A stretch of 32,000 nucleotides of DNA from Candidatus Iainarchaeum sp. (GCA_003559395.1 PWLL01000051.1:1-32000); one strand, 5' to 3'. Shown: positions 1 to 20,806, counted from the first letter of the stretch. Notes: generated from the letters alone by a model not told the origin. Made by a program: numbers and translations.

Positions 1-105
1 AAAAAAAACATATCATTAGATTAATAAATATATTTACACTATATATTATATCTGTCAAAAGACAAGTTAGTTTAAGATTATATTTAAATAATAAATTTGA
101 TAAAA

Positions 106-1302
106 ATGATCATAGGAATAGTAGGAGCACCAAATAAAGGAAAAACAACTTTTTTTAAAGCCTCAACACTAATGGATGTTGAAGTTGCAAACTATCCATT
201 TACTACAATAGATGCAAACAAAGGAGTGGGGTTTGTAAGAAACCAATGTATTGATAGTCATTTTAAAGTACAATGTAATCCAAGACATGGGTTTTGTAAA
301 GAACATACAAGATATATTCCTGTAGATATTATAGATGTTGCAGGACTTGTACCTGTAGCAAATGAAGGAAGAGGATTAGGTAACAAGTTTTTAACAGACC
401 TATATCAAGCTAACGCCTTAATTCAGGTAATTGATATTTCAGGTAAAACAAATCTAGAAGGAAAAACAACAAACAACGAAGAAAACGATCCAGCAAAAGA
501 AATAGCTTTTCTTGTTGAAGAAATAGATACATGGTTGTTTGGAATTTTTAAAAAAAATTTAGACAAAATCTCAAGAGAACAAAGAACAAAAAAAACAAAA
601 ACACAAACCGCTTTAATGACCTTTATGGGGTCTATGGGGGTTTCTGAAAAAAATCTAGATTTAGTTTTAAAAGAATGTTTACTAAAAGAAAAACTCTTAG
701 AAGACTGGACAGATCAACAATTAAAAGAATTTACTAAAAACATAAGAAAAACAACAAAACCAATAATTATTGCAGCAAATAAATTAGATGTGCCTGGCTC
801 ATATGAAAAATTAAAAAAATTAAAAGAAAAATTACCAGATATGAAAATTATTGGCTGTTGTGCAGAAGCAGAACTGGCTTTAAAATCTGCAAACAAAGCA
901 GGAGTTATTGACTATCTTCCAGGAGCTAATAACTTTAAAATAATTTCAGAAAAAATTAATGAAAAACAAAAACAAGCCCTAGAATTTATAAGAAAAGATG
1001 TACTTAAAAAATATGACTCAACAGGAGTACAAGAAATATTAGATTCAATAGTTTTTGAAACTTTAAAATATTTTTGTGTTTATCCTGGAGGTACTAAAAA
1101 ACTAGAAGACAAAGATGGGAACATTCTTCCAGATTGTTTTTTAATGCCACCAAGATCTACAACTCTAGATTTTGCATATAAACTACATACTGACTTTGGT
1201 AAAAACTTTATAAAAGCAATAGATGTTAAAACAAAAATGCTTTTAGGAAAAGACCATCTATTAAAAAATAATGACGTTATAGAAATTATTTCAGGAAAGT
1301 AA
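106..1302 (+). CDS. Obg/DRG/YchF-superfamily P-loop GTPase with C-terminal TGS-like domain
   Basis: ORF 97..1302 starts at TTG. The ATG at 106 puts the G1/Walker A motif GAPNKGKTT at the N-terminus. G3 is DVAGL and G4 is NKLD. The C-terminal segment GKDHLLKNNDVIEIISGK looks like a TGS domain. Confidence 0.85.
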   Translation: MIIGIVGAPNKGKTTFFKASTLMDVEVANYPFTTIDANKGVGFVRNQCIDSHFKVQCNPRHGFCKEHTRYIPVDIIDVAGLVPVANEGRGLGNKFLTDLYQANALIQVIDISGKTNLEGKTTNNEENDPAKEIAFLVEEIDTWLFGIFKKNLDKISREQRTKKTKTQTALMTFMGSMGVSEKNLDLVLKECLLKEKLLEDWTDQQLKEFTKNIRKTTKPIIIAANKLDVPGSYEKLKKLKEKLPDMKIIGCCAEAELALKSANKAGVIDYLPGANNFKIISEKINEKQKQALEFIRKDVLKKYDSTGVQEILDSIVFETLKYFCVYPGGTKKLEDKDGNILPDCFLMPPRSTTLDFAYKLHTDFGKNFIKAIDVKTKMLLGKDHLLKNNDVIEIISGK

Positions 1303-1590: not shown

Positions 1591-1665
1591 AAAGTAGGAA
1601 AACCTTTATAAAAAGAATAATAGCAAGTTTTGCAAAATGCAAAAGATTCTTTTTTTTGATTTCAT
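1591..1665 (+). promoter_or_regulatory. 5' arm of the pre-23S rRNA processing helix
   Basis: aaagtaggaaaacctttat (1591-1609) is the perfect reverse complement of 4665-4683. agattcttttttt (1644-1656) pairs with 4631-4643. gatttcat (1658-1665) pairs with 4618-4625. Confidence 0.8.
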
Positions 1666-4617
1666 GTTACGCCAATTAGTGGATAACTTGGCTTGTAGAC
1701 CGATGAAGAGCGTGGCAAGCTGCGATAAGCTTGGGGTAGGCGCATGCAGCCTTTGATCCCAAGATACTTGAATCATCCAGTTTTTCTGGAAGGGAACCTA
1801 GGGAATTGAAGCATCTTAGTACCTAGAGGAAAAGAAAACAAACGTGATTCCGTTAATAGGGTCGACCGAAAGCGGAGAAGAACAAACCGAATCTCTTATA
1901 GTGATATAAGAGACATGTGGGGTTTTGGCTTATTTACTTCTTAAATACGAAGTTGAATTTTTTCTGGAATGTTAAACCATAGAGGGTTATAGTCCCGTAA
2001 ACATAAACTATTTAAGAAGATTTTTAAGATCCAAGAGTATTGCGCGTTGGATATCGCGTAAGAACATGGCAGGCACTTACTGCTAATTCTAAATATACTA
2101 CAAGACCGATAGTAAATGAGTACTGTGAAGGAAAGTTGAAAAGTACTCCTAACGGAGGGTTAAAAGCACTTGAAACTAATTGGTTACTGTACGGGCATGG
2201 CCTGAAAGTAATGACGATGGATAATAAGGGCGTACTTTTGTACAAACGTCATCTATCTGAACGAGGTTGTGCTGTCCGTCACGAAGCACGGGCGAGGGAG
2301 TTTATCTTTATGGCAAGACAAAGTAACGAAGTTACGGTGTCGAAGGGAAACCAATATGTTCGCAATTTTTTAATGAGGAACAAGGTGTTAACTGTGCCTT
2401 TAGTCATAGGGATATGACCCGAAACCAGATGATAAATGCTTGGGCAGGGTGAAGGCAACCAACTGGTTGTTGGAGGCCCGCAGCAGTACTAGTCTAACTG
2501 TTTGTGTGACCTGAGTATAGGACTGATAAGGTAATCTAATCTGGTGATAGCGGGTTCCTATCGAAAAATCTCTAAGGATTGCCTGGCTGAAGACCAATAA
2601 TAGGGTAGAGATACTGATTAGAAAGTATTGGAAAGAAATTTCCAGCTTTCTTGTCAAACTCCGAATTTATTATTGTCGTTGAATGCTGGAGTAGGGGCTG
2701 GCGGGTAAGCTGCTTGTCCAAAAGGGGAATAACCCAGACTACGATTAAGGTCCTTAAATACCAACTAAGTGTAAATGCGAAGGGAGTTTTATTTCCAAGA
2801 CAATTGGGAGGTTGGCTTAGAAGCAGCCATCCTTTAAAGAGTGCGTAATAGCTCACCAATCTAGGAATATTGCCCTGAAAATTAACGGGACTAAGTTGGT
2901 TACCGATATCGTAGAGCACATGTCAATGTGATCTGGTAGGTAGGTGATTTGGTAGAGTAGAAGCTAGGTTGTAAAATCTTGTGGATCTGCCAAATATATG
3001 GATCCTTGCGATAGTAACATCAAAGAAAAGTGAGAATCTTTTTCGCCGAAGGGGCCCAGGTTTCTTAGCACTAATTATTAGCTAAGAGTAAGTCGATCCT
3101 AAGTTGAGTCGTAATCCGATAAACAACGAAAGGGAAACAGGTTCATATTCCTGTACCAATAAAACACGTATGGCAACGTAAGTATCATTTTTGACAGTTT
3201 TGGCAAGGTGGAGTGTGCTTGTCTGCACATCTAAGTGTTGCAGACCTCTCGAGAATCATAATGATGAGAAGGAGGTCAGAGACACGAATGGGAGAGATCT
3301 TCCATTGAGGCCAAGATTCCATGAAAAGAGAATGATACAGTGTTTTATTGCTCGTACTTAGAACTGGAAAAGGTGTCCCTAGCTGAGTAGGCTAAGGCGT
3401 AATAGGAGAATTAAGTTAAGGGAATTCGGCAAATTAGCCCCGTATCTTAGGTATAAGGGGTGCTTACGGTTGTGTAAACTGTAAGTTTTAATGACAAAGA
3501 CCGTCCGACTGTTTATCAAAAACACAGGTGACTGCTAGCCTGAAAAGGTGTGTATAGTCACTGACTTCTGCTCACTGCTAGTACGTGAACATCAAGTTCA
3601 ATTGATCTAAGCGCTGGTAAAGAGCGGGCCTAACTCTGAGGCTCTCATGGTAGCGTAATACCTTGCCGATTAATTGTCGGCTTGCATCAAGGAAGTAACG
3701 AGATAGTCACTGTCCCTAACTTAAACCTAGTGAACTTGCTACGTGGTGAATATGCCACGGACGACCAATGGGAGGATAAGACCCCATGGAGGTTTACCAC
3801 AGTCTGATGTTGTGATATTGTTTTCATTATAGAGCGTAGATGGGAGTCGCTTATGCTGTTCTCGCCAGAGAGCAGATAGACGCCAATGTAACACCATCTA
3901 GTGAAGAAAATATTACTTAACGTTTCTTTGTAAACGGACAGCATTTGATTGGGTGGTTTGACTGGGGCGGTACGCCCCTGAAAAGATATCAGGGGCGTCC
4001 AAAGGTTTGCTCAAGCAGGTCAGAAATCTGCTTTAGAGGACAAGACCAAAAGCAAGCTTAACTGTGTTTCGCACAGCAAGAAACGCAGGAAGGAAACTTG
4101 GGTCTAGCGAACGCTAGTGTCCCTATTAGTGGGGGCCTAGTCTGACAGTAAACTTACCCTGGGGGTAACTGAGTTGTCGCGGGTTAGAGTCCACATCGAC
4201 CCCGCGGTTTGCTACCTCGCTGTTGGCTTACGGCATCCTGGTTGTGCATAAGCAGCCAAGGGTGGAGGTGTTCACTCATTAAAGCCGTACATTAGCTTAG
4301 TTAAGAACGATGCGAGTCAGTTTGGTTTCTATCTATTGGTCGTGTTGGTTGTCTGAGGGAAAGATACGTTTAGTACGAGAGGAACGATGTGTCGCAATCT
4401 CTGGTGTACCGATTGTCTGACAAGGCACTGTCGGGTAGCTACGTTGTATTTGATAAGAGCTGAAAGCATCTAAGCTCGAAGCGAATCCTGAAACGAGACA
4501 GCCATTCCTGCAGAGATGTAGGACGAGGACGCCGGAAGAAGACCGGTTTGATAGGTCAGTAATGTAAGACGGGAGTTTCTTACGACTGTTTAAGTTTTCT
4601 GATACTAATAGTCCGAG
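1666..4617 (+). rRNA. rrl: 23S (LSU) ribosomal RNA, archaeal type; ends approximate to about +/-15 nt
   Basis: Recognised LSU motifs: 5' GGAUAACUUGGC...GAUGAAGAGCGUGGCAAGCUGCGAUAAGC; GTPase-associated centre GGCUUAGAAGCAGCCAUCCUUUAAAGAGUGCGUAAUAGCUCAC (about 2812-2855); sarcin-ricin loop AGUACGAGAGGAAC (4372-4385). The 5' AUUAGU and 3' ACUAAU form helix 1. The region is GC-richer than its surroundings and is bracketed by a long inverted repeat. Confidence 0.95.
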
Positions 4618-4683
4618 ATGAAATCTTTTTAAAAAAAGAATCTACAACTTGTTGTTGTTTTTAGATAAAGGTTTTCCTACTTT
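4618..4683 (+). promoter_or_regulatory. 3' arm of the pre-23S rRNA processing helix
   Basis: Reverse complement of 1591-1665 in three blocks of 8, 13 and 19 bp with internal bulges. T-runs follow at about 4700-4708. Confidence 0.8.
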
Positions 4684-6311: not shown

Positions 6312-6911
6312 ATGTGTGTTTTTATGTCCTACAAAGCATATCTTGATATTGAAGTATCAAATCTTAAACTTGTTATAAAATCAATAATAAAAAACTTTGA
6401 AGAAGAAAATCTTTATCTATTGCATAGACTAGACGAAGCTTTGTTAGAAAAAGCAATAATCGATAATGATGCCGATATTGTTAATCTTTCAGTTGTGGCC
6501 TATTGTTTTAGAAAATTGTTATCTAAAAAACACATCATAAACAATATAAAATGGCCAGAAATAAAACAGAAACTACTTGATAGTCTCTATAAAATACAAA
6601 AACACATAATAACAGGAGACCAAAAAGCAATCAAACAAGAAATACTAAACATAGAAAAAACTATAGAACATACAGACAATCTCTTTGGTTACTTTGTTCA
6701 AAATCTAGTTACAAATTCAAGAACAAAAATTGCGTCCTCTGCATATGGATATGGTTTGTCTTTATCTAAAGCATCTAAACTACTTTCTGTTAACAAAGAA
6801 CAAGTTATGAAGATTGTTGGACAAACAAAAATGTCTGATGAAGATGAAACTATAGAAAACATAAAAAAAAGAGTAGAATATATTATAGAAAATAAAGCAA
6901 AAGAAAAGTGA
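6312..6911 (+). CDS. Hypothetical protein with a C-terminal UPF0175/COG2886-like HTH; putative antitoxin-like partner of the next gene
   Basis: 199 aa; an alternative ATG lies at 6324. The C-terminal segment KIASSAYGYGLSLSKASKLLSVNKEQVMKIVGQT resembles the UPF0175 antitoxin HTH (Y..G.iSlgkAA.l.gv....f...l). Its stop lies 4 nt before the next start. Confidence 0.45.
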   Translation: MCVFMSYKAYLDIEVSNLKLVIKSIIKNFEEENLYLLHRLDEALLEKAIIDNDADIVNLSVVAYCFRKLLSKKHIINNIKWPEIKQKLLDSLYKIQKHIITGDQKAIKQEILNIEKTIEHTDNLFGYFVQNLVTNSRTKIASSAYGYGLSLSKASKLLSVNKEQVMKIVGQTKMSDEDETIENIKKRVEYIIENKAKEK

Positions 6912-6915
6912 TTAT

Positions 6916-7584
6916 ATGAAAATTGTATTTGACTCAGGAGTTATTATTAGTTTCTCAGAAACTTGTTTTTTGCCTCTATTAAGACCATTAAAAGAAGATA
7001 TTGGAGAATTTATAATAACCAAAGGTGTAAAAAATGAATGCGTTGATAGAGTTAGAAACAACATGAGACTAAAACTAAGCTCTCTAAGAATAGAAGACCA
7101 AATAAACGGATATGTTTTTGATGTTTATGAAGGAAATAAAGAACTAACTGAAAAAACAAACAAAATACTATCAATAACAAACAGTATATTTACTATCCAT
7201 AATAGACCTTTGAAAATTGTTGATTTTGGAGAAGCAGAATGTTTAGCTTTATTAGGTCTTACAAAAGCAACATGTATTGCAGTTGATGAAAGAACAACAA
7301 GAATGTTGATTGAATCACCAAAATCTCTTTTAGAAATATTTAAAAAAAAACACAGAACTAAAAAAATAAAAATAGATGAAGAAAAATATCAAAAATTTAT
7401 TAATGAGATTGGAAAAGTAAAAGCTATAAGATCAGTTGACTTGTTTTCATATGCTTATATAAGAAAATTGTTAAATAATAAATATCTTAATAAAGAACAT
7501 CTTAAAGCAGCCTTATATTCTTTAAAATTTAATGGATGTAGTGTTTCTTTTAACGAAATTGAAGGATATCTTAAAGAAATATAA
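6916..7584 (+). CDS. PIN-like (COG2405/DUF3368-type) predicted nuclease with a C-terminal extension
   Basis: N-terminal MKIVFDSGVII carries the PIN first acidic residue. Also present: GEAECLALLGL...CIAVDERTTR, matching the GEAE..A....DD..AR pattern of DUF3368-type PIN domains. Confidence 0.5.
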   Translation: MKIVFDSGVIISFSETCFLPLLRPLKEDIGEFIITKGVKNECVDRVRNNMRLKLSSLRIEDQINGYVFDVYEGNKELTEKTNKILSITNSIFTIHNRPLKIVDFGEAECLALLGLTKATCIAVDERTTRMLIESPKSLLEIFKKKHRTKKIKIDEEKYQKFINEIGKVKAIRSVDLFSYAYIRKLLNNKYLNKEHLKAALYSLKFNGCSVSFNEIEGYLKEI

Positions 7585-7621
7585 AAAATTGGTGTTTTTT
7601 AAGAATATTACTGTTTTTAAA

Positions 7622-7642
7622 TACTTTTGTACATAATATATA
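7622..7642 (+). promoter_or_regulatory. TATA-type promoter element (tacttttgtacataatatata)
   Basis: AT-rich TATA-like box centred about 30 nt upstream of the ATG at 7668. A near-identical copy lies at 4801-4822. Similar 'acataatatata' elements precede tRNA-Leu (16336-16353) and other genes. Confidence 0.5.
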
Positions 7643-7667
7643 TTTGTACAACAAAGAAAGAAAATCT

Positions 7668-8381
7668 ATGAAGATTGTAAAAAAACACACAACTTATTTT
7701 ATAAATCCAAAAGATGAAGAAGAAAGAAAGCTTATAGATAAGTATGTTTTTTCAGAAATTGAACTTAAAGAAATTACAGAAAAAGTTGCTTGTTTAATAA
7801 AAACAGAAGAAAATACAGAAACAAAAGAAATAAACACAAAACAAAAAATTACTGCTCTACTTAACGACAAGTCACTGGACTTTAAAAATAAACTAGAAGG
7901 AAGATTTGAAAAACTACTTAATAAAAAAGATTTAGCTGTTTTTAAAGAAATGGTTGAAAAGAAAGAAATTGTTTTAGATAAACTATCAAACAAATATAAA
8001 AACTTTTTTTATAAAGTAAATAATAAATCACAATCAAAAGAAACAATGGATGAAAAATTTGAAGAATTTAAAAAAAAAGAACATGTTATATTTTCACAAG
8101 ATAGCCTAGCACAGAAGTTTTCACAAACCTTTACTAAACAACTACAATCTGGAGAAATAAGAGGCACAAAATCTTTTGATAGATGTTATTATGTTGTCTC
8201 TAGTTCTGTTTTTGATAAGCTTAGTGACCAAATACTAAAACAATTTGAAAAAGACTTTACAATAAAAGAAGTTGCAGAAAAATTAAAAGTTTCTGAAGAT
8301 CTTATAAAATGTGTGTTAGAAATTCTTAAAGAAGAATGTTCGATAATAGAAAGAAGAAAAGGAGTATATTATAAAGTGTGA
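7668..8381 (+). CDS. Hypothetical acidic/basic protein with two winged-helix-like modules
   Basis: The ORF track start (TTG 7644) lies inside the TATA element, so the ATG at 7668 (MKIVKKH) fits a near-leaderless mRNA. Two wHTH-like segments both end in F/YYKV: ...KYKNFFYKV and FTIKEVAEKLKVSEDLIKCVLEILKEECSIIERRKGVYYKV. Confidence 0.5.
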   Translation: MKIVKKHTTYFINPKDEEERKLIDKYVFSEIELKEITEKVACLIKTEENTETKEINTKQKITALLNDKSLDFKNKLEGRFEKLLNKKDLAVFKEMVEKKEIVLDKLSNKYKNFFYKVNNKSQSKETMDEKFEEFKKKEHVIFSQDSLAQKFSQTFTKQLQSGEIRGTKSFDRCYYVVSSSVFDKLSDQILKQFEKDFTIKEVAEKLKVSEDLIKCVLEILKEECSIIERRKGVYYKV

Positions 8382-8386
8382 TTAAT

Positions 8387-9313
8387 ATGTCAATTACGAT
8401 GATATTGCTAATAGCAATTTTTATATTTATTGTAGGTAACATAATCCTAAGTTATCTAGAAAAAAAATCAAAAAATTGTTTGCCAGTAGATAAAGATATC
8501 TCTAAAGAAGTTTTATCTTCTAAAGTAGATGTTTTAAATAATAGAGTTGGATCTATGGAAAATAGAATCAATCTTATAAATATGAAAGATGTTAAGAAAA
8601 AACCTAAAAAGAAAAAAACAATTTATAAAATACCTAAAACTAAACAAATAAAAGCTAAAAAACCAGTTGTAAAGAAAAAACCAGTATCTAAAACAACTTC
8701 TAAAAAGTCAATATCTAAAAAAACTATAAACAAAAAACCAACATCTAAAAAACCAGTAACTAAAAAAACAAATACAAAGAACACTGGATTAAGTAAAAAA
8801 CCAATTACTAAAAAGATATCTACAAAGAAAAAACCAACAAAAAAGAGAACAATTTCTAAAGATCAAGTAGACTATTTATCATTAATAGAGATCTTAAGAA
8901 AAAGAGTTTCTGAATTAGAAAAACTTTCAGAAAAATCAACTCTTAAAAAACCAATACCTAAAAAAATAACAAATAAAAAACAAACAAACGTTGCACAAAT
9001 AAAAGCTTTAAGAAAAAGACTATCAGAACTAGAGAAAAAAATAGAAAAACCAATACCTAAAAAACCAGTCACTAAAAAAACACCTTCTAAACCTAAAAAA
9101 CCAGCCACTAAAAAAACACCAAAAGTTGATGTTTTAAATAAATATGAATATTCAAAAACAAAAAGCTCAATAATTAATCAACCACAAAAAACAAAGACAG
9201 AACCAAATAAAGAACTAGTCTTAAGACAAAATAACGAAAATCCACAAAAGAAAACATCAAGAAAAAGAATCATCGAAAGAGTAATAGAATCAGAAGATGT
9301 AGATGAAAATTAG
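8387..9313 (+). CDS. Membrane-anchored lysine-rich repeat protein (KKP[VIT][ST]KK repeats plus two coiled-coil-like repeats)
   Basis: The ATG at 8387 lies just after the upstream stop (8379-8381); the GTG at 8378 is an alternative start. One N-terminal TM segment (ILLIAIFIFIVGNIIL). In the segment at about 8594-8860 I count 38 Lys in 89 residues. LRKRVSELEKL...KKPIPKK is duplicated as LRKRLSELEKK...KPIPKK. Confidence 0.6.
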   Translation: MSITMILLIAIFIFIVGNIILSYLEKKSKNCLPVDKDISKEVLSSKVDVLNNRVGSMENRINLINMKDVKKKPKKKKTIYKIPKTKQIKAKKPVVKKKPVSKTTSKKSISKKTINKKPTSKKPVTKKTNTKNTGLSKKPITKKISTKKKPTKKRTISKDQVDYLSLIEILRKRVSELEKLSEKSTLKKPIPKKITNKKQTNVAQIKALRKRLSELEKKIEKPIPKKPVTKKTPSKPKKPATKKTPKVDVLNKYEYSKTKSSIINQPQKTKTEPNKELVLRQNNENPQKKTSRKRIIERVIESEDVDEN

Positions 9314-10218: not shown

Positions 10219-11982
10219 ATGTATCTAAAAATAAAAGAAGAAACTTCTTTAAAAAAAATAAAAACTTTAAAGAAAAACGTTTTTTTAAACTGCCCATATA
10301 ATTTTAGTAATAAAGAAGTTAACGTGCTTGAGTGTAAAAACTGTAAAACACCTAAATGTATGTCAGTTTGTAAAAGTAATGCTATTTACTTTGCATCAAA
10401 TCAAATAGTTGCAATAGACGAAAGTCTTTGTGTTGGTTGTGGCAGATGCTTAGAAGCATGTGAACAAAAAGCAATTATTCTAAAAAACAAAAAAGCAAAA
10501 AAATGTGATCTTTGTGCAAATAATTCCTTTCTTATGCCTTGTTATTATAATAATAAAGATGTTTTGGAGTTGTTAGAAGATACAAAAGCTAAAGAAAAAA
10601 CCTATTCTAAATATCTTGGATATACTATAAGAAGAGATATAAAAATAAACAAATATCTTTCAAAAGATAAAAAAATTGTTAATTGTGATGATGAGATTAA
10701 AAGATATGTTATCTCTGAACCCTTGTTGTCTTTACAAGAAATAAATATAATAAACACTATCTTAGACACATACAAAGACAAAACAATAGATACAGAACTA
10801 GAAGATAATTTTGAAAAAAAAGTGTTTGAAGATTTAGAAACAGAACTTGTAAATTATTGCTATTTTAATAATATTGTTCTGGATGATGACCAGTTTAAAT
10901 ATATTCTTCAACTAACCTACAATAATCTTTATAACTTTGGACCAATTACGTATCTTTTAGAAGATAAAAATCTAGAAGAAATTTCTGTAATAGGCACAAA
11001 AAAACCAGTCTATGTTTATCATAAAAATTTTGGATGGTTAGAAACCAACATAATATATATTTCAGAAAATATACTAAAAGAACTTATAAATAAACTATCA
11101 TGGTTTTCAAACAAATATATTACTTTAAAAAATCCTTTGTTAGACGCCTCTTTACAAGACAAATCAAGACTAAATGCAATCATTAATCCAATAACAGAAA
11201 GCTCAACAATAACCATAAGAATGTTTTCAAAAAAAGGATTTAGTTTAAAAGATCTTATTAATCTAAATACAATTACTCTAGAAGCCCTAGCCTTCTTAAG
11301 CCTTGTTTTTTTAACAGATTCAAATGTGTTGGTTGTTGGAAACACTGGTTCAGGAAAAACAACAACCTTAAACGCTCTTTTATCATTAGTTCCAGAAAAT
11401 GAAAGATTTGTTCTTGTAGAAGAAGTAAAAGAAATTAAAATACCACATAAACATCAAGTTTCAACAATCGTAAACAAAGAACTAGACGTTTCTTTAGAAT
11501 CTTTAGTCATAAATACTTTGAGAATGAGACCAGATAGAGTAGTTATTGGAGAAATAAGAAGAAAAGAAGAGTGTTTTGCATTAATAGACTCTATGTTGTG
11601 TGGGCAAGCAAAAGGAACATACACAACCTTTCATGCACAAACAGCAAACGAAGCCATATTAAGGCTTATGTCTTATGGCGTTATGGAAACTGATCTTTCT
11701 TCAGTAGATATTATCATTAATCAAAGAAGATATAATAGTTATTCAAAAAACCAAATACAAGAAAAAAGAAACATTTTTGAAATTGTTGAAGTTTTTTATA
11801 AAGATAAGAAAATACAGCAAAACAAGTTGTTTGAATATGATGCAGAAAAAGATAGGCTTGTAAAAAAGAATGACCCCAAAAAACTTATGGCTAAGTTTAA
11901 GATTGCTTTTAAGATAACATCTAAAAAAGACTTTGTTCGATTACTTGGACAAAAGAAAAATTATATTAAAAATCTGAAATGA
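10219..11982 (+). CDS. Type II/IV secretion-family (FlaI/PilB/VirB11-like) assembly ATPase with an N-terminal polyferredoxin-like Cys-cluster domain
   Basis: Walker A VGNTGSGKTTTLNALL (about 11335-11380), Asp box ERFVLVEEVKEI, Walker B DRVVIGEIR, His box TFHAQ. The N-terminal ~110 aa carry CKNCKTPKCMSVC, CVGCGRCLEAC and CDLCANNSFLMPC (about 10330-10545). Confidence 0.85.
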   Translation: MYLKIKEETSLKKIKTLKKNVFLNCPYNFSNKEVNVLECKNCKTPKCMSVCKSNAIYFASNQIVAIDESLCVGCGRCLEACEQKAIILKNKKAKKCDLCANNSFLMPCYYNNKDVLELLEDTKAKEKTYSKYLGYTIRRDIKINKYLSKDKKIVNCDDEIKRYVISEPLLSLQEINIINTILDTYKDKTIDTELEDNFEKKVFEDLETELVNYCYFNNIVLDDDQFKYILQLTYNNLYNFGPITYLLEDKNLEEISVIGTKKPVYVYHKNFGWLETNIIYISENILKELINKLSWFSNKYITLKNPLLDASLQDKSRLNAIINPITESSTITIRMFSKKGFSLKDLINLNTITLEALAFLSLVFLTDSNVLVVGNTGSGKTTTLNALLSLVPENERFVLVEEVKEIKIPHKHQVSTIVNKELDVSLESLVINTLRMRPDRVVIGEIRRKEECFALIDSMLCGQAKGTYTTFHAQTANEAILRLMSYGVMETDLSSVDIIINQRRYNSYSKNQIQEKRNIFEIVEVFYKDKKIQQNKLFEYDAEKDRLVKKNDPKKLMAKFKIAFKITSKKDFVRLLGQKKNYIKNLK

Positions 11983-12719
11983 CTATGAAAATAATCTCAG
12001 AAACCTTTTCAAAAAACAACAATGTTGGTTTTCTTGCGTGTGTTATTTTTATTTTGCTTATTTATTTCTCTTTAACAAAGATATATGTAATTAAGGTGCA
12101 ATATCTTTTTTATGCTCTTTTGTTTGTTGGTTTTTGTTTTTATATAATTATCTTTTATTCTAAAAAAATAAAATATGAAAATCAATATAAAGAAATATCC
12201 AAAGAACTTCCATTTTTTATAAACAATCTAGCAAACGATCTAGAAAAAAACATATCTATAAAGAACGCTTTAGAAAACAGAACAAAAGACGGCACTCTAA
12301 TTTCTTTAAAAATAAAACAAGCACTTAATAATGTTTCAAATAAAGGATATCATCTAAAAGATTCTTTATTGTTAATATCTAAAGAACATAAAGATTTTTA
12401 TGACGTTACATATCAACTAATAGAAATAATCAACTCAGGAACAAGAAACAAAGCCTATCCATTAAGAATTCTATCAAAGACTATGGTAGAAGAGCAGACT
12501 ATAAAGATGAAAAACTACTCAACAAAACTAAATCTAATTACCTTGTTATATATTGTTGTTTCTGCTATTGTTCCTGCAATGTTGTTAATGTTTTTTATAG
12601 TTGGTGGTAATTTTTTTGAAATTAGTTTTTCTCCAACAATGGTTGTTTTTATTTGTGTTGTTGTTTTTCCTGTTGTAGATATGTTATTGTTATTGATTTT
12701 AAGAAGTAGTTTGCCATGA
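11979..12719 (+). CDS. T2SS-F/FlaJ/TadB-like pilus platform membrane protein (single T2SSF domain)
   Basis: ATGA overlap with the ATPase gene. N-terminal TM segments, then a soluble helical domain (ELPFFINNLANDLEKNISIKNALE), then C-terminal TM segments, as in T2SSF-domain proteins. Confidence 0.65.
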   Translation: MTMKIISETFSKNNNVGFLACVIFILLIYFSLTKIYVIKVQYLFYALLFVGFCFYIIIFYSKKIKYENQYKEISKELPFFINNLANDLEKNISIKNALENRTKDGTLISLKIKQALNNVSNKGYHLKDSLLLISKEHKDFYDVTYQLIEIINSGTRNKAYPLRILSKTMVEEQTIKMKNYSTKLNLITLLYIVVSAIVPAMLLMFFIVGGNFFEISFSPTMVVFICVVVFPVVDMLLLLILRSSLP

Positions 12720-13531
12720 AAGAAATTTTAAAAAAAACAAGATATTTGTTGATTTTTGTAATTTTGTTTATCTTGTATGTGATTATAGAAGAAAGGTTTG
12801 TTTTTTTAATAGTTATTTTTTCAGTAACGATTGCTTTTTTCTTTATAAAACATCTTTTAAAAGCCTATAACAAAACAATTATAAAAAGAAATCTAGAAAA
12901 CACACTAACAGACGAAATACTAAAACTAACAACTATGAATCTTTCAGGAGATATAAAACAAATAGTAAATAGTTTGTGTTTTTCTAGAAACAAAACCCTT
13001 GCATATGAGTTTAGGATAATTCAGAAAAAAATCAAACAAGGACATAATATAAAAACTTTGTTTGATATTCTTAAAAACAAATACAATTCAGATATTTTGG
13101 ATAAATTTTTAAACTTAATAATAATTTCACATAAAACCGGTACCACAAGCTACAGTGATTTTAAAAATTTAGTAGATGAGTTTTTAAGATCAAAACAAAT
13201 TATGCAGGAAAGAAACTCTATGCTTCTTATGCAAAAATACACAATCATCTTTTCTGGAACCATAATCATTCCTGTTATCTTAGGTGTTGTGATTTCTTTA
13301 GTAGAAAAATTAAGTAGTTCTTTTGATATGTCTTCTTTAGGCTTTGAGATTAACAATCAGTTATTTGTGGTTGGTTATTATTGTTCTATTATTTATATAA
13401 TAGAATATATTATTATATCTTCAATATATTTAGCAACTATAGAAAACAATTCAAAGAAATTTATTGTTTATTTTTTAATATGTTTACCAATTAGTTTGGG
13501 TTTGTTTTTTTTAGCACCTTATGTTTTTTAA
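12716..13531 (+). CDS. Second T2SS-F/FlaJ/TadC-like pilus platform membrane protein
   Basis: ATGA overlap with the previous gene. Same TM / helical domain / TM layout. Together the two proteins (246 + 271 aa) match one two-domain archaeal FlaJ/PilC. Confidence 0.6.
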   Translation: MKEILKKTRYLLIFVILFILYVIIEERFVFLIVIFSVTIAFFFIKHLLKAYNKTIIKRNLENTLTDEILKLTTMNLSGDIKQIVNSLCFSRNKTLAYEFRIIQKKIKQGHNIKTLFDILKNKYNSDILDKFLNLIIISHKTGTTSYSDFKNLVDEFLRSKQIMQERNSMLLMQKYTIIFSGTIIIPVILGVVISLVEKLSSSFDMSSLGFEINNQLFVVGYYCSIIYIIEYIIISSIYLATIENNSKKFIVYFLICLPISLGLFFLAPYVF

Positions 13532-14583: not shown

Positions 14584-15450
14584 ATGGTGGAAAACATGAA
14601 AATTTTAGAAAATACATATATAAAAGATATTAAAAAATTAAATAAAAAAATAGAAACAATAAAAAAAGAAGGAAAAGATAATATTCAAATAATCTCAGAC
14701 TTTGATAAATCTTTAACACAATTTATTGTTGATGGTCAACAATTTAAAAGTGTTATTGCTCAAATAAGAGATGGACTTTATCTTGGAGAAGAATATACAA
14801 AAAAAGCAAATGCGTTTTATGATTATTATCATCCAATAGAGATTGACCCAAACATATCTTTTCAAGAAAAAAAAGAAAAAATGAAAGAATGGTGGTCAAA
14901 ACATATAATCTTACAAGCAGAACAAGGACTTTCAAAAAAAATAGTAGATGAAGTTAATAAAAATTCAAAAATAAAACTAAGAGACTTTGTAAAAGAAGTA
15001 ATTTATGAAACAAACCAAAATAACATCCCTTTTCTAATATTGTCTTCAGGAATAGGAGATTTTATTGAACAAATTCTTAAAAATAAAGAATGTCTTTTAA
15101 ATAATATTTTTATCATTTCTAATTTTTATGATTATGATGAAAATGGTTTGGTTAAAGGATATAAAGAAAATGTTATTCATTTATTAAATAAAAATGAATA
15201 TGGTGTCAAAGAAACAAAATATTACGAAAAAGTAAAAAATAAAAAAAATATTTTGCTTTTTGGAGACTCTTTAAGTGATGTCAATATGTCTGATGGTTTT
15301 GATTATAAAGAGATTATTACGGTTGGTTTTTTAAACGAAAATAAAGAAAAATTGTTAGATATCTATTTAGATAATTTTGATATTGTTATAACTAATGACG
15401 GCTCATTTGAACAAGTATATAAACTTTTAAAAGAAATTGTTGGTTATTAA
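14584..15450 (+). CDS. HAD-superfamily pyrimidine 5'-nucleotidase, UMPH-1 / cytosolic 5'-nucleotidase III-like
   Basis: Motif I is ISDFDKSLT. LILSSGIGDFIEQIL, VKGYKENVIHLLNKNE and LLFGDSLSDVNMSDG closely parallel human NT5C3 (FIFSAGIGDVLEEVI, LKGFKGELIHVFNKHD, ILLGDSQGDLRMADG; human sequence recalled from memory). Confidence 0.75.
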   Translation: MVENMKILENTYIKDIKKLNKKIETIKKEGKDNIQIISDFDKSLTQFIVDGQQFKSVIAQIRDGLYLGEEYTKKANAFYDYYHPIEIDPNISFQEKKEKMKEWWSKHIILQAEQGLSKKIVDEVNKNSKIKLRDFVKEVIYETNQNNIPFLILSSGIGDFIEQILKNKECLLNNIFIISNFYDYDENGLVKGYKENVIHLLNKNEYGVKETKYYEKVKNKKNILLFGDSLSDVNMSDGFDYKEIITVGFLNENKEKLLDIYLDNFDIVITNDGSFEQVYKLLKEIVGY

Positions 15451-15940: not shown

Positions 15941-16264
15941 ATGAAAACCATAAATTATGTGTTAATAGGCGTACTAGTTATTTTTGTAGTAATGATTTTT
16001 GCATTACAACCAAAATATGAAGAAACAATTCCTGAAGACGCAGAATTAATGTTTTGTGAAGTAGATGCAGATTGTGTGCCTTTTCCTGCAGAATGTCATA
16101 CAAAAACGTGTATAAATCAAGAATATGCACACTTATATGAAGAACCAGAGGCTTGTACTATGATATTTGATTCAGAAGCAGCATATACTCCTGAATGTTG
16201 TGTATGTATAAATAATGTTTGTCTAAATCAAAATCTTGGTCGAGATATAGAAGATATAGAATAA
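15941..16264 (+). CDS. Small secreted or membrane-anchored cysteine-rich protein
   Basis: AGGAGG (15927-15932) lies 8 nt upstream of the ATG. N-terminal signal/anchor INYVLIGVLVIFVVMIFAL. There are 9 Cys in the ~80-aa acidic ectodomain. Confidence 0.65.
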   Translation: MKTINYVLIGVLVIFVVMIFALQPKYEETIPEDAELMFCEVDADCVPFPAECHTKTCINQEYAHLYEEPEACTMIFDSEAAYTPECCVCINNVCLNQNLGRDIEDIE

Positions 16265-16290
16265 CCATTGGTTATTCTTTCTTTTTTCTT
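16259..16290 (+). terminator. Hairpin plus T-run terminator
   Basis: Perfect 9-bp hairpin gaataacca-t-tggttattc (16259-16277) overlapping the stop codon, followed by tttcttttttctt. Confidence 0.55.
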
Positions 16291-16365: not shown

Positions 16366-16447
16366 GCTGGAGTTCCCGAGCGGTCAAAGGGGCCAGACTC
16401 AAGATCTGGTGCTTAGTGCTTCACAGGTTCGAATCCTGTCTCCAGCA
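16366..16447 (+). tRNA. tRNA-Leu (anticodon CAA)
   Basis: Acceptor GCUGGAG/CUCCAGC, anticodon stem CCAGA/UCUGG with loop CUCAAGA, long variable arm, T arm ACAGG-UUCGAAU-CCUGU. The TATA-like aacataatatatatataat lies about 23 nt upstream. Confidence 0.93.
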
Positions 16448-17037: not shown

Positions 17038-17097
17038 TAGTTTCTTTTTTTTGTAACCTTTAAAAAACATGACAAAAAGAGTTTCTTTTTTTTGTAA
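17038..17097 (+). promoter_or_regulatory. Two perfect 19-nt direct repeats (agtttcttttttttgtaac) upstream of the regulator gene
   Basis: Copies at 17038-17056 and 17079-17097, start-to-start spacing 41 nt. They lie between the stop of 16473..17030 and the start at 17118. Confidence 0.5.
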
Positions 17098-17117
17098 CTC
17101 TAGATTTCACAAAAAAT

Positions 17118-17612
17118 ATGTTTAAAAACATTTTGTTTGTTATATATTTTATTATGGATAAAAAATTAGTGCTATTGATATCTTTTATTTCATTTGTTTG
17201 TTTGATGATTTTATTTAATTTGTTAATATATGACCAATTATCAGGAAATGCTTGTACATGTCCAAAAGTTGTTTCTCAAAACATGGTCCTTTTTTTTATA
17301 ACTTTATCAATAATTTTTACTGCTTCTTTATTTTATTATCTTTATTCTATATCATTAAGTAAAAAAGAAAAAATAATAGTTCATAATCAAAAAACAATTT
17401 TCTCTGTATTAAATGAAGATGAAAAAAAAATATTAAAAGAAATAATAAAAAATAACAACGTAATAGAACAAAAAAAACTATCCAAAAAATTTGGCAAAAT
17501 AAAAACACACAGAATTATTAAAAAACTCAAAGAAAAAAACATCGTTGTTATAGAAAAAAAAGGACAGGAAAATATTATTAAACTAATAGAAGGATTTAAG
17601 GTGAAAATATGA
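17118..17612 (+). CDS. Membrane-anchored winged-helix (MarR/ArsR-like) putative transcriptional regulator
   Basis: Two N-terminal TM segments flank a short loop with a CxC motif (GNACTCPK, tgt aca tgt at 17253-17261). C-terminal wHTH-like segment EDEKKILKEIIKNNNVIEQKKLSKKFGKIKTHRIIKKLKEKNIVVIEKKGQENIIKL. Confidence 0.55.
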   Translation: MFKNILFVIYFIMDKKLVLLISFISFVCLMILFNLLIYDQLSGNACTCPKVVSQNMVLFFITLSIIFTASLFYYLYSISLSKKEKIIVHNQKTIFSVLNEDEKKILKEIIKNNNVIEQKKLSKKFGKIKTHRIIKKLKEKNIVVIEKKGQENIIKLIEGFKVKI

Positions 17613-18790
17613 ATAAAAAATATCTAATAGTTTTAGTTTTGTGTTTTTTATCTTTATTTATGTTAAGTAACATAACAAACATAAATGCACAAACAACCAT
17701 AGACCAATCAAAAGAACAAGTAGAAATAAATTATTTTTATTCGCCTGGTTGTTCAGCATGTGCTCAAATGGAACTTTTTCTTGATAATTTAAAAGAAAAA
17801 TATGACGATGTAATTTTGAATAAATATAATCTGCAAAGAGAAAGAAAATTATTTGAAGATTTAATAAAAGAATATAAGGTTCCAGAAGATAGAGTGGGTT
17901 ATATACCAACAGTATTTATAGAAGAAGATTATTTTGTAGGATATGAAAGACAAATAACTAATTATATAGAATATATTGTTGCAACAAAATTAGGAATAGA
18001 TTTTGATCCAGAAGGACCTCAAAAACCAGAAGATTTTGAAGAACTAGAAAAAACAAGAGTACAAACAAGTATCTTAGGGATTTGGGACGTAGATGTTGGA
18101 TTTGAAGATAAATCAATCTTTTTTGCAACTATTATCTTAGGATTTTTAGATAGTCTGAATGTTTGTTCAATAACTGTTTTATTATTTTTAATAATATATA
18201 TGTTGTCGATAGGTTCCTTTAAAAAAACACTTAAAATAGGACTTGTCTTTGTTGCAGTCATCTATATTTTTTACTTTTTAGCTGTTCTTATGCTAACTTC
18301 ATTATTAAGTATTTTTGTTTTAAGATATGGATTAATGATTAGAATAATATTATCCATAATTGCAGGACTTGTAGGATTGATACTAATTAAAGACTTTTTC
18401 TTTTATGGAAAAGGAATATCACTAGAGATACCAAAGTTTGCAAAACCAATTTTAGAAAAATATCTTAAAAAAGCAACAATTGTTTCTACAATAATGTTTG
18501 CACTATTAGCATCTTTAGTAGAACTGCCCTGTACAGCAATATTTCCTTTAATTTTTTCAACTATACTTGCAGAATCAGGAATTGTTGGAGTTTCAAGATT
18601 ATTGTGGATTGCTCTATATAACCTAGTGTATGTTATACCATTACTTGTAATTATTTTTGGAGTTTATTTTTCATGGTTAAAAATAGAACACCTAAACAAA
18701 AATATAAACAAATACAAAAAATGGATGAAATTAATTGCAGGAGCAATGCTTATATTAATTGCATTATATTTTATAATACCTATTATATAA
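17609..18790 (+). CDS. Secreted glutaredoxin/thioredoxin-like domain fused to a CcdA/DsbD-like 6-TM thiol-disulfide transporter
   Basis: ATGA overlap with the regulator gene. Signal peptide, then YFYSPGCSACAQ...IPTVFIEEDYFVGY (CxxC Grx-like fold). Six TM segments follow, with one Cys each in TM1 (GFLDSLNVCSITVL) and TM4 (LVELPCTAIFPL), as in CcdA. Confidence 0.7.
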   Translation: MNKKYLIVLVLCFLSLFMLSNITNINAQTTIDQSKEQVEINYFYSPGCSACAQMELFLDNLKEKYDDVILNKYNLQRERKLFEDLIKEYKVPEDRVGYIPTVFIEEDYFVGYERQITNYIEYIVATKLGIDFDPEGPQKPEDFEELEKTRVQTSILGIWDVDVGFEDKSIFFATIILGFLDSLNVCSITVLLFLIIYMLSIGSFKKTLKIGLVFVAVIYIFYFLAVLMLTSLLSIFVLRYGLMIRIILSIIAGLVGLILIKDFFFYGKGISLEIPKFAKPILEKYLKKATIVSTIMFALLASLVELPCTAIFPLIFSTILAESGIVGVSRLLWIALYNLVYVIPLLVIIFGVYFSWLKIEHLNKNINKYKKWMKLIAGAMLILIALYFIIPII

Positions 18791-18812
18791 TGTATTATTT
18801 AAGGTGTGACCT

Positions 18813-19544
18813 ATGGGACTAATAAAATCAATAAAAAATCTTGGAAAAAATACTCTGTATTATCCAGGATGTTTAACAAAGTTTGTTTTAAAAGACATTA
18901 ACGATAACTATAAAAAAATACTAACAAAGATAGATATAGAATACATTACACTTAAAGACCTAGAAGTCTGTTGCGGAAGTCCAATACTAAACTGTGGACA
19001 CGAAGAAGAAGCAATTGAACTTATTAAAAAAAACTATAAGATTTTTAAAGAACACAGTGTAAATAAAATTATCACCTCTTGTCCAGCATGCTATCATACT
19101 TTCAAAAATACATATCCTAAATTTTTAGAAAAATGGGATCTACAAGTAGAACATATTACTCAAACTATCGATAAAGCAATAAAAGAAAAAAAAATAAATA
19201 TAGAATCACTAGACATAGATCTTACATATCATGACCCATGTCATCTAGGAAGATACTGTGAAATATATCAGGAACCTAGAAATATTCTTAAAAAAATAGG
19301 AAATATAAAAGAAATGAAACTTACAGAAAACTATTCTTTTTGTTGTGGAGGAGGATCAGGAGTAAAATCAAACTATACACCACTTGCAAACTCAATAGCC
19401 AAAGAAAGAATAGAAATGGCAAAAGAAACAAAAGCAAAATGTTTAACAACAACCTGCCCTATGTGCTATCTAAACTTAAAAGAAAACTCAAAAGATCTAA
19501 AAGTAAAAGAAATAAGTCAACTTATAATAGGTGAAGAAGAATGA
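18813..19544 (+). CDS. lutA: LutA/LldE/YkgE-like Fe-S oxidoreductase with two CCG cysteine-rich domains
   Basis: YYPGC...EVCCGSPI...SCPACYHTF and HDPCHLGR...SFCCGGGSG...TTCPMCYLNL form two CCG-type motif sets. The 243-aa length matches YkgE/LutA. Confidence 0.75.
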   Translation: MGLIKSIKNLGKNTLYYPGCLTKFVLKDINDNYKKILTKIDIEYITLKDLEVCCGSPILNCGHEEEAIELIKKNYKIFKEHSVNKIITSCPACYHTFKNTYPKFLEKWDLQVEHITQTIDKAIKEKKINIESLDIDLTYHDPCHLGRYCEIYQEPRNILKKIGNIKEMKLTENYSFCCGGGSGVKSNYTPLANSIAKERIEMAKETKAKCLTTTCPMCYLNLKENSKDLKVKEISQLIIGEEE

Positions 19545-20806
19545 ACTTAGAAAAAGATATTGAAAAATGTCAAATAACTCAAAAATTGATTTTGCCTATA
19601 ATGTACGACTATAAAAGAAAAAGAGATCTACTTATAGATGAAAATCAAAAAGAACAAATGAGAACTGAATTGCGAAAAATAAAAGAAAAAGCAATTGATA
19701 ATATAGAAGAACTTAAAAAAAAAGCAATAAAAAACTTAGAAGAAAACGGAATAAACGTTATTGAAGTAAAAGATAAACAAGAATTTGAAAATGCAATTAA
19801 AAAAATAATTGGTTCTGAAAAATTAATTACTAAATCAAAATCAAATGTTATAAAAGAAATAGAAATAGAAAAAATGTTAAAAGATAAAGAAATATTAGAA
19901 ACAGACCTTGGAGATTTTATTGTTCAAATAAGTGATGAAAAAAGTTTGCATCCTGTGACTCCAGGAATGCATCTTACACCAGAAAACATTGTAAAAACTA
20001 TTAAAGAAAAATTTGATAAAGAAGTTCAACCAACACCAGAAGCAATCGCAGCCTTTGCAAGACAATTTTTAAGAGATAAAATATATAAAGCCAAAGTTGG
20101 GTTGACAGGCGCAAACGTCATTTCTGCTGATGGAAGTATTTTTATTTTAGAAAATGAAGGTAATATTTCTTTAATATCTAGAATCGTTGATAAACATATA
20201 GTAGTAACCGGATGGGATAAAATAGTAGAAAATAGAGAAGAAGCACAAAAAATTGTTCAAGCGTCAAGCATCTTTGCCTCTGGTCAAAATTATCCTGTAT
20301 ATGTTAGTATAATTTCAGGACCAAGTAAAACAGCAGATATTCAAAAAAAACTAATCATTGGTGCTCAAGGAGCAAAAGAAGTTCATTTAATATTATTAGA
20401 TAATAAAAGAAGTGATTTACTAAAAACGGAATTTGAAGAACTATTATATTGTATTAACTGCGGAGCTTGTGTAAATCTTTGTCCTGTATATCATCAAATA
20501 TTTACCAAATATGGAAGTAAAGACTTTTCAGGACCAAAAGGAGTCATCACATCTTCATTTAGAGAAGATAAACAAAATGCCTATGAAAATGGAGCTTTCT
20601 TTTGTACATCCTGTAAACTATGTAAAGAAAACTGTCCTGTAAAAATAGATCTATCAGAACTTATAAAAAAACTAAGAAAAAAACTAGCAAAAGAAAAAAT
20701 AGAACCAGAAAATATTAAAGAAATGATAGAAAACACAAAAAAATATGGAAATCCTTTTGGAGAAATTGATGAGAAAAAAACACCTGATAAATTTTATTGT
20801 TGTTAA
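19541..20806 (+). CDS. lutB: LutB/LldF/YkgF-like iron-sulfur protein (LUD domain plus two 4Fe-4S motifs)
   Basis: ATGA overlap with the lutA-like gene. KSKSNVIKEI...ETDLGDFIVQI...HPVTPGMH...GLTGANVISADGSIFILENEGN parallels Bacillus LutB. Also CINCGACVNLCPV and CTSCKLCKENCPV. Confidence 0.75.
   Translation: MNLEKDIEKCQITQKLILPIMYDYKRKRDLLIDENQKEQMRTELRKIKEKAIDNIEELKKKAIKNLEENGINVIEVKDKQEFENAIKKIIGSEKLITKSKSNVIKEIEIEKMLKDKEILETDLGDFIVQISDEKSLHPVTPGMHLTPENIVKTIKEKFDKEVQPTPEAIAAFARQFLRDKIYKAKVGLTGANVISADGSIFILENEGNISLISRIVDKHIVVTGWDKIVENREEAQKIVQASSIFASGQNYPVYVSIISGPSKTADIQKKLIIGAQGAKEVHLILLDNKRSDLLKTEFEELLYCINCGACVNLCPVYHQIFTKYGSKDFSGPKGVITSSFREDKQNAYENGAFFCTSCKLCKENCPVKIDLSELIKKLRKKLAKEKIEPENIKEMIENTKKYGNPFGEIDEKKTPDKFYCC

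Follow-up and report, generated by a model that had tools for sequence, protein, structure and literature searches.

A possible iron-sulfur electron input to a CcdA-like transmembrane thiol relay encoded by a four-gene operon of a DPANN-type archaeon

Introduction

In a stretch of 32,000 nt from Candidatus Iainarchaeum sp. (hereafter the window, with positions counted from its first letter), four co-directional open reading frames (ORFs) on the + strand span 17118-20806 and form an operon that encodes a membrane-anchored regulator (R), a secreted thioredoxin (Trx)-like domain fused to a six-helix transmembrane (TM) core (TC) and two iron-sulfur (Fe-S) proteins (A and B). On balance, we lean towards the reading that A and B constitute a disulfide reductase resembling HdrBC, driven by a 2-hydroxyacid, which would feed electrons through a C-terminal Cys-Cys arm into the CcdA-like transmembrane relay of TC. 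In the proposed mechanism, B would oxidize a 2-hydroxyacid in the cytoplasm, most likely lactate, and pass the electrons to A, an HdrB-like protein with two CCG motifs; A would then reduce a protein-borne disulfide, namely that of the vicinal cysteine pair with which B ends, and this flexible arm would exchange with the buried Cys186/Cys308 pair of the TC core. From there the electrons would reach the outward Trx-like CxxC domain of TC itself and, finally, reduce extracytoplasmic targets. The outward CxC motif of R probably senses the external thiol/disulfide state, and R would control the operon through the sequence GTTTC-N7-8-GWAAC. If the electrons of A and B do enter TC via the tail, the pair would replace the thioredoxin and thioredoxin reductase (TrxR) of classical CcdA systems.

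To our knowledge, all of the characterized DsbD/CcdA-type transporters draw their electrons from thioredoxin, and all of the characterized CCG/HdrB-type enzymes act on a small heterodisulfide, a quinone or DsrC. No description of a link between CcdA/DsbD and CCG or LutAB proteins, or of the YCC tail described below, was found in open-access papers and bioRxiv. A CCG/Fe-S dehydrogenase wired to a transmembrane cysteine relay would, if true, represent a new mode of electron input for the thiol chemistry of the envelope. The DPANN archaea and the bacteria of the candidate phyla radiation (CPR) are tiny symbiotic organisms with minimal metabolism, generally held to be quinone-less, and the upkeep of thiols on their surface proteins, pili and attachment proteins still calls for an explanation. 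The invariant Cys-Cys tail would offer a concrete, mutable handle on this question, and R with its operator a testable regulatory circuit. There would also be a gain in annotation, as such genes are now read as lactate utilization (“LutA/LutB”) and as unknown (“hypothetical/thioredoxin family”).

Conservation of the TC-A Pair and Exchange of the Input Module

A genome scan with a TC profile gave 80 loci, in which the window proteins were searched by tblastn: A was found in 41 of them, full-length B in about 27, the ferredoxin part of B alone in about 14 and R in 20. In 34 of the 40 loci for which ORF clustering yielded both a TC and an A gene, A follows TC immediately on the same strand, with a median gap of 1 nt. 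When metagenome contigs were scanned with A as the query, TC was directly upstream in all 13 loci. R homologs stand beside TC less often, in 20/80 genome loci and 4/13 metagenome loci. An earlier note on this DNA, made from the sequence alone, had suggested that an Fe-S/CCG oxidoreductase might be linked directly to a membrane thiol-disulfide shuttle; conservation of the A-TC linkage, which it asked to see surveyed, is borne out by these counts, and the suggestion itself gains support from synteny, from the module swaps and from the covariation of tail and TC described here.

The flanking genes of the TC-A loci are otherwise unrelated, and three gene orders occur, under labels that include Pace-, Woese-, Aenigm-, Nanohalo-, Micr-, Parv- and Altiarchaeota, together with Saccharibacteria, Shapirobacteria and other Patescibacteria. 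The first layout, [R] TC A B, is that of the window. The second is [R divergent] B, small gene, TC A, in which the small gene encodes a signal-anchored Trx-like CxxC protein where TC consists of the TM part only. The third is TC A c4 c5, where c4 is a GlcD-like FAD oxidase (FAD_binding_4 and FAD-oxidase_C; TIGR00387 at 1e-56) and c5 a 2x[4Fe-4S] protein of 115 aa. This GlcD-like enzyme with its small Fe-S protein replaces the LutB-like B in 13-14 loci, TC-A being unchanged. The electron-input module is, in other words, interchangeable, a LutB-like protein being present in some loci and a GlcD-like flavoenzyme with a small ferredoxin in others.

TC genes without A also occur in apparent operons with TrxR, Trx or glutaredoxin (Grx)-like genes: TrxR lies 0.7-1.3 kb away on the same strand in three loci (L040, L044 and L055), and Trx at 23 nt in another (L052). 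One locus (L059) carries TC-A followed by TrxR-Trx.

The C-Terminal Cys-Cys Tail of the Fe-S Partners

In TC-A loci, every Fe-S partner whose C-terminus is visible, 51 of 51, ends in GNPFG-x8-12-[YF]CC-COOH. In the genome loci the motif, in the form GNPFG-x8-12-[LMF][YF]CC-COOH, closes 27/27 B proteins, 12/12 c5 proteins and one c4-c5 fusion, and the same ending is present in locus L078 and in all seven metagenome copies with a visible 3′ end. In a search with residues 290-421 of B against 1.84 billion representatives, about 34 of the best 150 matches end in CC, and many of the others share GNPFG but differ beyond it, either as LdhH-type fusions (640-727 aa) or as LutB-like proteins that end in ...GNPFGEPxEKRxxW.... 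Three divergent CC-tailed representatives, picked blind to their context, all proved to lie in B-TC-A loci, in one of which TC has only the TM part and A is followed by a gene for a separate CPHC Trx protein. Three representatives without the CC ending (five loci, L101-L105) belong to LutA-LutB pairs with neither TC nor LutC. Since the CC tail is found in 51/51 partners that have TC and in 0/3 families without it, the tail tracks TC. It also seems, from the latter five loci, that a two-subunit “LutAB” is a normal archaeal form.

The possibility that the tail cysteines coordinate the two ferredoxin clusters in B was rejected. As read from the sequence, B contains two CxxCxxCxxxCP motifs and its eight cluster-ligand cysteines are complete without the tail, so that the tail cysteines are extra. 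We propose the tail as a candidate mobile redox arm, a role suggested by conservation and covariation.

TC, a Secreted Trx-Like Domain on a DsbD/CcdA-Superfamily Core

There are at least 251 TC homologs (E ≤ 1e-3, from 8000 scored candidates), spread over DPANN, CPR and a small number of other metagenome-assembled genomes (MAGs). In alignments of 33 and 43 of them the N-terminal CxxC is conserved, D181, N184 and C186 in TM1 and E305 and C308 in TM4 are invariant, and a loop, KDFFFYGKGxSLEIP, is strongly conserved; this loop should be cytoplasmic because the Trx domain lies outside. The AlphaFold model of full-length TC (predicted local distance difference test score, pLDDT, 84.9) shows the signal peptide followed by a Trx fold and then by six TM helices, and the model of the TM core alone reaches 86.7. 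The helices are at residues 168-201, 204-232, 235-264, 291-322, 328-353 and 359-389, and the C-terminus is predicted to be extracellular.

The relationship to CcdA, claimed in the earlier note for the membrane domain, holds at the superfamily level and not below it. On the window TC, Pfam returns a weak Trx match alone, and neither DsbD_TM (PF02683) nor DsbD_2 (PF13386) matches even at E ≤ 1; among 33 relatives the matches are SfLAP in 14, DsbD_2 in 4 and DsbD_TM in 1. With the window copy lacking a DsbD match and few relatives having one, membership can be placed at the superfamily level only. The PDB sequences searched with the TC alignment profile yielded only Trx/Grx chains and no CcdA, hence sequence alone does not reach CcdA, and a fold search with the full-length model likewise found thioredoxins only. 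With the TM-only model the top PDB match was CcdA (5VKV; probability 0.91, TM-score 0.45/0.46 over 220 columns, but E 0.36), every other fold match having a probability of ≤0.15. In an hhalign comparison with Escherichia coli DsbD, C186 falls on FTPC (Cys163) and C308 on SPCT (Cys285), at E 8e-4 but a probability of only 24%. The core also weakly matches the organoarsenical permease family ArsG (E 0.0018). TC is best read from these alignments as a divergent member of the DsbD/CcdA superfamily with both catalytic cysteines in place, and not as a canonical CcdA.

The outer CxxC varies. CPHC is the commonest form, in 20 of the 32 A-linked TC sequences that have a CxxC within their first 140 residues, while the homologs linked to TrxR carry CSKC, CKAC and CHAC. 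The window TC carries CSAC.

A and B, a CCG/LUD Iron-Sulfur Pair

The CCG motif is known from heterodisulfide reductase, where it binds the non-cubane [4Fe-4S] clusters that reduce disulfides. The domains announced in the earlier note for the two proteins are recovered by profile searches: A matches Pfam CCG (PF02754) twice, at 6e-34, and B consists of a LUD domain (aa 60-286, 1e-39), an HdrC-like 2x[4Fe-4S] domain (aa 300-369, Fer4_8 at 3e-12) and the C-terminal tail. The conserved cysteines of A are at positions 20, 53, 54, 90, 93, 143, 177, 178, 215 and 218, and these ten columns, with the pattern C...CC...CxxC twice, are 98-100% conserved over 44 TC-linked A proteins; E. coli YkgE, to which A is only 25% identical, is without two of them. 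The closest solved relatives of A are an “iron-sulfur-binding reductase” (9ojn, 1e-20) and HdrB (5odc, 1e-10), and residues 287-385 of B match HdrC chains at 3e-5. Against E. coli YkgF, B shows 30% identity in an alignment that ends at B residue 387 (YkgF 394); the extension of YkgF (395-475) has no counterpart in B, which ends instead in a 19-residue YCC tail.

Among the NCBIfam models, A and B jointly cover an LdhH/TfrB/GlpC-type architecture, with all scores far under the equivalog cut-offs: B scores 285 against the LutB equivalog TIGR00273 (cut-off 444.8), and the HdrB models give 51.8 (cut-off 345) and 23.9 (cut-off 450). A second LUD protein, that is LutC, was found neither in the window ORFs scanned nor in the related loci. 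Its absence, which the earlier note had pointed out, is real and yet not special, because archaeal LutA-LutB pairs without LutC occur without TC too. The pair would work like HdrBC but is not HdrBC.

Direction of Electron Flow and Alternative Readings

LutB/LldF, LdhH and GlcD are families of respiratory lactate/2-hydroxyacid dehydrogenases, and HdrB-type sites reduce disulfides. The evidence from synteny and from the tail is neutral on the direction of flow; we consider outward, reductive flow more likely than inward flow, given that TC genes without A stand beside TrxR and Trx, the classical reductants of CcdA, and that both input modules come from 2-hydroxyacid-oxidizing families. Several observations tell against electron delivery from A/B to TC and outward. 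About half of the TC loci are without A, so TC can work without A/B, and the three nearest homologs of the window TC (L001-L003, 51-53% identity) keep R and the operator with no A or B within 10 kb, the Fe-S partner having been either lost or moved in these genomes. No more than five loci underlie the TrxR enrichment around TC. The missing DsbD matches of the window TC, its modest CcdA fold match and the low hhalign probability weaken the identification of the relay, and the catalytic role of a LutB-type protein without LutC is unproven. By its textbook potential of about -190 mV, the lactate/pyruvate couple has little reducing power for a relay of the thioredoxin type. Finally, the dominant CPHC is a DsbA-type oxidizing motif, which fits an oxidative role as well or better.

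This last point leads to the reading in which the same machine runs in reverse, an unlikely alternative: it would perform oxidative folding independently of quinones and oxygen, a DsbA-like outer domain being reoxidized by a DsbD-fold protein, and electrons would flow inward via Cys186/Cys308 to the Cys-Cys arm, then to A, to B or the GlcD-like module, and on to pyruvate or another 2-oxoacid. In this scheme A would oxidize the arm, as has been proposed for the sHdr system of sulfur oxidizers. The hosts are generally taken to be anaerobes with neither quinones nor respiratory chains, in which DsbB or VKOR could therefore not be reoxidized. The preponderance of CPHC among A-linked TC proteins, its replacement by other motifs in the TrxR-linked homologs and the neutrality of all the coupling evidence are also in its favor. 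However, the step from a DsbA-like center (about -120 mV) to pyruvate would be uphill by textbook potentials, the GlcD/LutB-type enzymes are known as oxidizers of 2-hydroxyacids, the HdrB-type CCG sites so far characterized reduce disulfides, TrxR and Trx beside related TC genes can only reduce, and the window motif is CSAC rather than CPHC. If true, the oxidative reading would add a third kind of DsbA reoxidase to DsbB and VKOR, one that places electrons onto a fermentation intermediate.

It is less probable still that no direct transfer takes place, A/B being an ordinary 2-hydroxyacid dehydrogenase and TC an ordinary Trx-fed CcdA that are merely co-regulated, for example in a redox-stress regulon under R. 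A-B pairs do stand alone in other archaea, TC does without A in so many loci, at times with TrxR/Trx, and L059 combines TC-A with TrxR-Trx; but mere co-regulation leaves unexplained why A, and not B, is always the immediate neighbor of TC, why TC-A stays constant amid swaps of the dehydrogenase module, and why the [YF]CC tail is present in every TC-linked partner and in none of the TC-less ones examined. The least probable of the readings weighed here, and one we regard as distinctly improbable, has the relay handle a thiophilic ligand, i.e., a soft metal, a metalloid or a sulfur/selenium species, that would travel by way of the outer CxxC and then the TM cysteine pair to the C-terminal Cys-Cys, with A/B reducing it. 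The layout mirrors the MerP-MerT-MerA path for mercury, and MerA also has a C-terminal Cys-Cys pair; the weak ArsG match of the core fits, as do the ArsR-type regulators, the CDF transporter and the MinD/NifB-like Fe-S genes of some TC loci. The TC-A-B loci themselves are, however, without metal-resistance or sulfur-trafficking genes, the outer domain has a Trx/Grx fold and not the heavy-metal-associated one, and both TM cysteines align with the redox cysteines of DsbD.

Comparison With Known Systems

In the CcdA/DsbD route, electrons pass from thioredoxin to CcdA or DsbD-beta and on to ResA, CcmG, Etrx or DsbD-gamma. TC shares with these proteins the six-TM core, one redox cysteine each in TM1 and TM4 within “PC”-type motifs, and an extracytoplasmic Trx-fold CxxC partner, fused as in DsbD/DipZ; TrxR/Trx genes accompany it in some loci. 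It differs in its motifs DGxNPC and ELPCT and in the KDFFFYGKGxSLEIP loop, in its Pfam relations, which are to SfLAP/DsbD_2 rather than DsbD_TM, and in that its conserved genomic partner is a CCG/Fe-S enzyme instead of thioredoxin.

A has two complete CCG motifs as in HdrB, and the ferredoxin domain of B resembles HdrC. A protein-borne cysteine substrate also has a precedent in DsrK, a CCG protein that acts on cysteines of the flexible C-terminal arm of DsrC. Unlike in the HdrBC and DsrK systems, the operon is without HdrA, MvhD, HdrE or DsrM partners and the membrane component is a thiol-disulfide carrier and not a b-type cytochrome, while the arm, in contrast to that of DsrC, belongs to the Fe-S subunit B itself and has vicinal cysteines. 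With LutABC/LldEFG and LdhH (LldGH) the operon has in common that the LutA-like and LutB-like genes overlap in the same order, but it contains no LutC, B has the YCC tail in place of the YkgF extension and A keeps the two cysteines lost in YkgE. The third layout, which is not that of the window, recalls GlcDEF and Dld-II, since its GlcD-like FAD protein, small ferredoxin and A correspond to GlcD plus a split GlcF; there, however, GlcE is missing, the ferredoxin part bears the YCC tail and the linkage is to TC and not to quinone.

For the tail, the nearest parallels are the high-Mr thioredoxin reductases (GCUG/SCCS) and the C-terminal Cys-Cys of MerA, where (near-)vicinal cysteines at a flexible C-terminus shuttle electrons or a ligand between a buried active site and an external partner; the protein families are unrelated, and a like role for the B tail is suggested by its conservation and covariation. 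In oxidative folding by DsbA-DsbB/VKOR, too, a Trx-fold domain of the CPHC type lies outside and is coupled to a redox protein of the membrane, but the TC core would have a DsbD fold and not the quinone-binding four-helix fold of DsbB/VKOR. The operon would work like CcdA, HdrBC/DsrK-DsrC and a respiratory-type lactate dehydrogenase combined. It fails the family-level tests for CcdA, LutABC and HdrBC, and is best called a predicted relay of the DsbD type served by its own, novel Fe-S electron partner.

The Regulator and Its Putative Operator

R was described in the earlier note as a regulator with two TM helices, an extracytoplasmic loop with a CxC motif (ACTCP) and a cytoplasmic winged helix-turn-helix (wHTH), and its homologs agree: two TM helices are common, the CxC of the outer loop is kept in 18/20, and 16 of the 17 family members match DUF7343, a MarR-like wHTH domain, with a best value of 1.7e-13, the match of the window R being weak. 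The same note let the operon begin at 17038, a position that falls in the promoter/operator region and not in a gene; the R ORF runs from 17118, and alignment with the homologs places its true start probably at the ATG at 17145.

Upstream of R are two identical 19-nt repeats (Table 1), each of which holds the imperfect palindrome GTTTC-N8-GTAAC, with a TATA-like box, TTTAAAAAA, between them. The palindrome pattern has 2 matches in the window against 0.17 expected, and in about 24 of the 27 loci where it occurs its place is the R/operon boundary, which makes it good evidence for an operator. The repeats are the putative operator of R, with the consensus GTTTC-N7-8-GWAAC.

Operon Structure and Genomic Setting

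The four-gene arrangement was drawn correctly in the earlier note, as the ORFs and junction sequences confirm. R and TC overlap by ATGA at 17609 (aaggtgaaaatATGAat) and so do A and B at 19541 (ggtgaagaagaATGAac), while TC and A are separated by 22 nt, including “aaggtg”, between the TAA at 18788-18790 and the ATG at 18813. A GGTG(A) ribosome site precedes every downstream start in the operon, and a scan of the four-gene block found no terminator-like hairpin within it.

Table 1. Positions of the features of the operon and of a secreted protein found in related loci.
Feature	Position	Strand	Description and basis
Two identical 19-nt repeats, AGTTTCTTTTTTTTGTAAC	17039-17057, 17080-17098 (element 17039-17098)	+	Putative operator; repeat search, pattern count, locus comparison
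R	17118-17612	+	Membrane-anchored winged-helix regulator; ORF call, Pfam, homolog alignment
TC	17609-18790	+	Signal peptide, Trx/Grx-like domain and 6-TM DsbD/CcdA-superfamily core (predicted); homologs, model, hhalign
TC signal peptide	aa 1-27	+	Model
TC extracytoplasmic Trx/Grx-fold domain	aa ~36-127	+	Model, homologs
TC 6-TM DsbD/CcdA-superfamily core	aa ~168-389	+	Model, Pfam matches of relatives, hhalign
C48-S-A-C51 codons, CxxC active site of the outward Trx-like domain	17750-17761	+	CxxC conserved in alignment; family consensus GCPHCA
Cys186 codon, TM1	18164-18166	+	Family motif D-x-x-N-P-C; invariant, aligned to DsbD Cys163
Cys308 codon, TM4	18530-18532	+	Motif E-L-P-C-T; invariant, aligned to DsbD Cys285
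A	18813-19544	+	Cytoplasmic, HdrB/LutA-like, two complete CCG motifs; Pfam, NCBIfam, PDB profile matches
B	19541-20806	+	LUD, HdrC-like 2x[4Fe-4S] and C-terminal tail; Pfam, NCBIfam, YkgF alignment
B tail, GNPFGEIDEKKTPDKFYCC-COOH	20750-20803	+	Vicinal Cys420-Cys421 as the final two residues; invariance in TC-A loci, absence from TC-less LutB-like proteins
Ig-like secreted protein	L008 6857-7264, L014 4937-5335, L047 9490-9942, L064 3914-4351, L099 829-1605		Adjoins TC-A; motif P-x-C-x-x-C-x-G-I-x-x-G-x-[HY]

The window is very AT-rich (about 24% GC outside rRNA) and encodes an archaeal 23S rRNA and an archaeal signal recognition particle (SRP) RNA; as the closest relatives of the studied proteins come, in addition, from MAGs labelled Pacearchaeota and Woesearchaeota, it can be assigned to a DPANN-type archaeon. 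A sigma-70 promoter scan of the window gave results at the level of shuffled sequence, its outcome being meaningless for an archaeon. None of the window ORFs of ≥90 aa scanned against Pfam was a LutC, Trx, TrxR or lactate permease.

Upstream, a small secreted protein with nine cysteines (15941-16264) and a DedA/VTT gene had been suggested in the earlier note as possible clients. A terminator-like site (16258-16278) follows the 9-Cys ORF and a tRNA (16366-16447) stands between the two genes and the operon. As clients both were rejected because they are not conserved, with 0 and 1 weak match, respectively, in the 80 related loci. Downstream, the 3′ ends of B and of a convergent threonyl-tRNA synthetase gene overlap by 4 nt (20803-20806), leaving no room for a terminator.

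Other observations concern the related loci. A small secreted Ig-like protein adjoins TC-A in five of them (Table 1) and is a candidate extracytoplasmic client or partner of TC-A; the window contains no homolog of it. Four loci with A-less TC (L029, L042, L046 and L057) carry genes for a DUF134 HTH protein, NifB/dinitrogenase-cofactor-like small proteins, MinD-type ATPases with a ferredoxin insert and a CDF transporter, a conserved cluster of another kind that may point to a further role for the TC family, perhaps one involving metals.

Elsewhere in the window, the 23S rRNA gene (1655-4628) is solitary, neither 16S nor 5S rRNA being detected within the 32 kb, and has a GC content of about 40%, against 24% in the surrounding DNA. 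A T2SSE/archaellum-type secretion ATPase (10219-11982) has an N-terminal 2x[4Fe-4S] ferredoxin domain, which is unusual for a pilus ATPase, and is followed by an ORF of 246 aa without a Pfam match (11979-12719) and by a T2SSF-like membrane protein (12716-13531). Four ORFs without Pfam matches upstream of the ATPase (6312-9313) might be pilins. Lastly, the ORF at 14584-15450 strongly matches (1.6e-71) the UMPH-1 family of pyrimidine 5′-nucleotidases, enzymes known mostly from eukaryotes.

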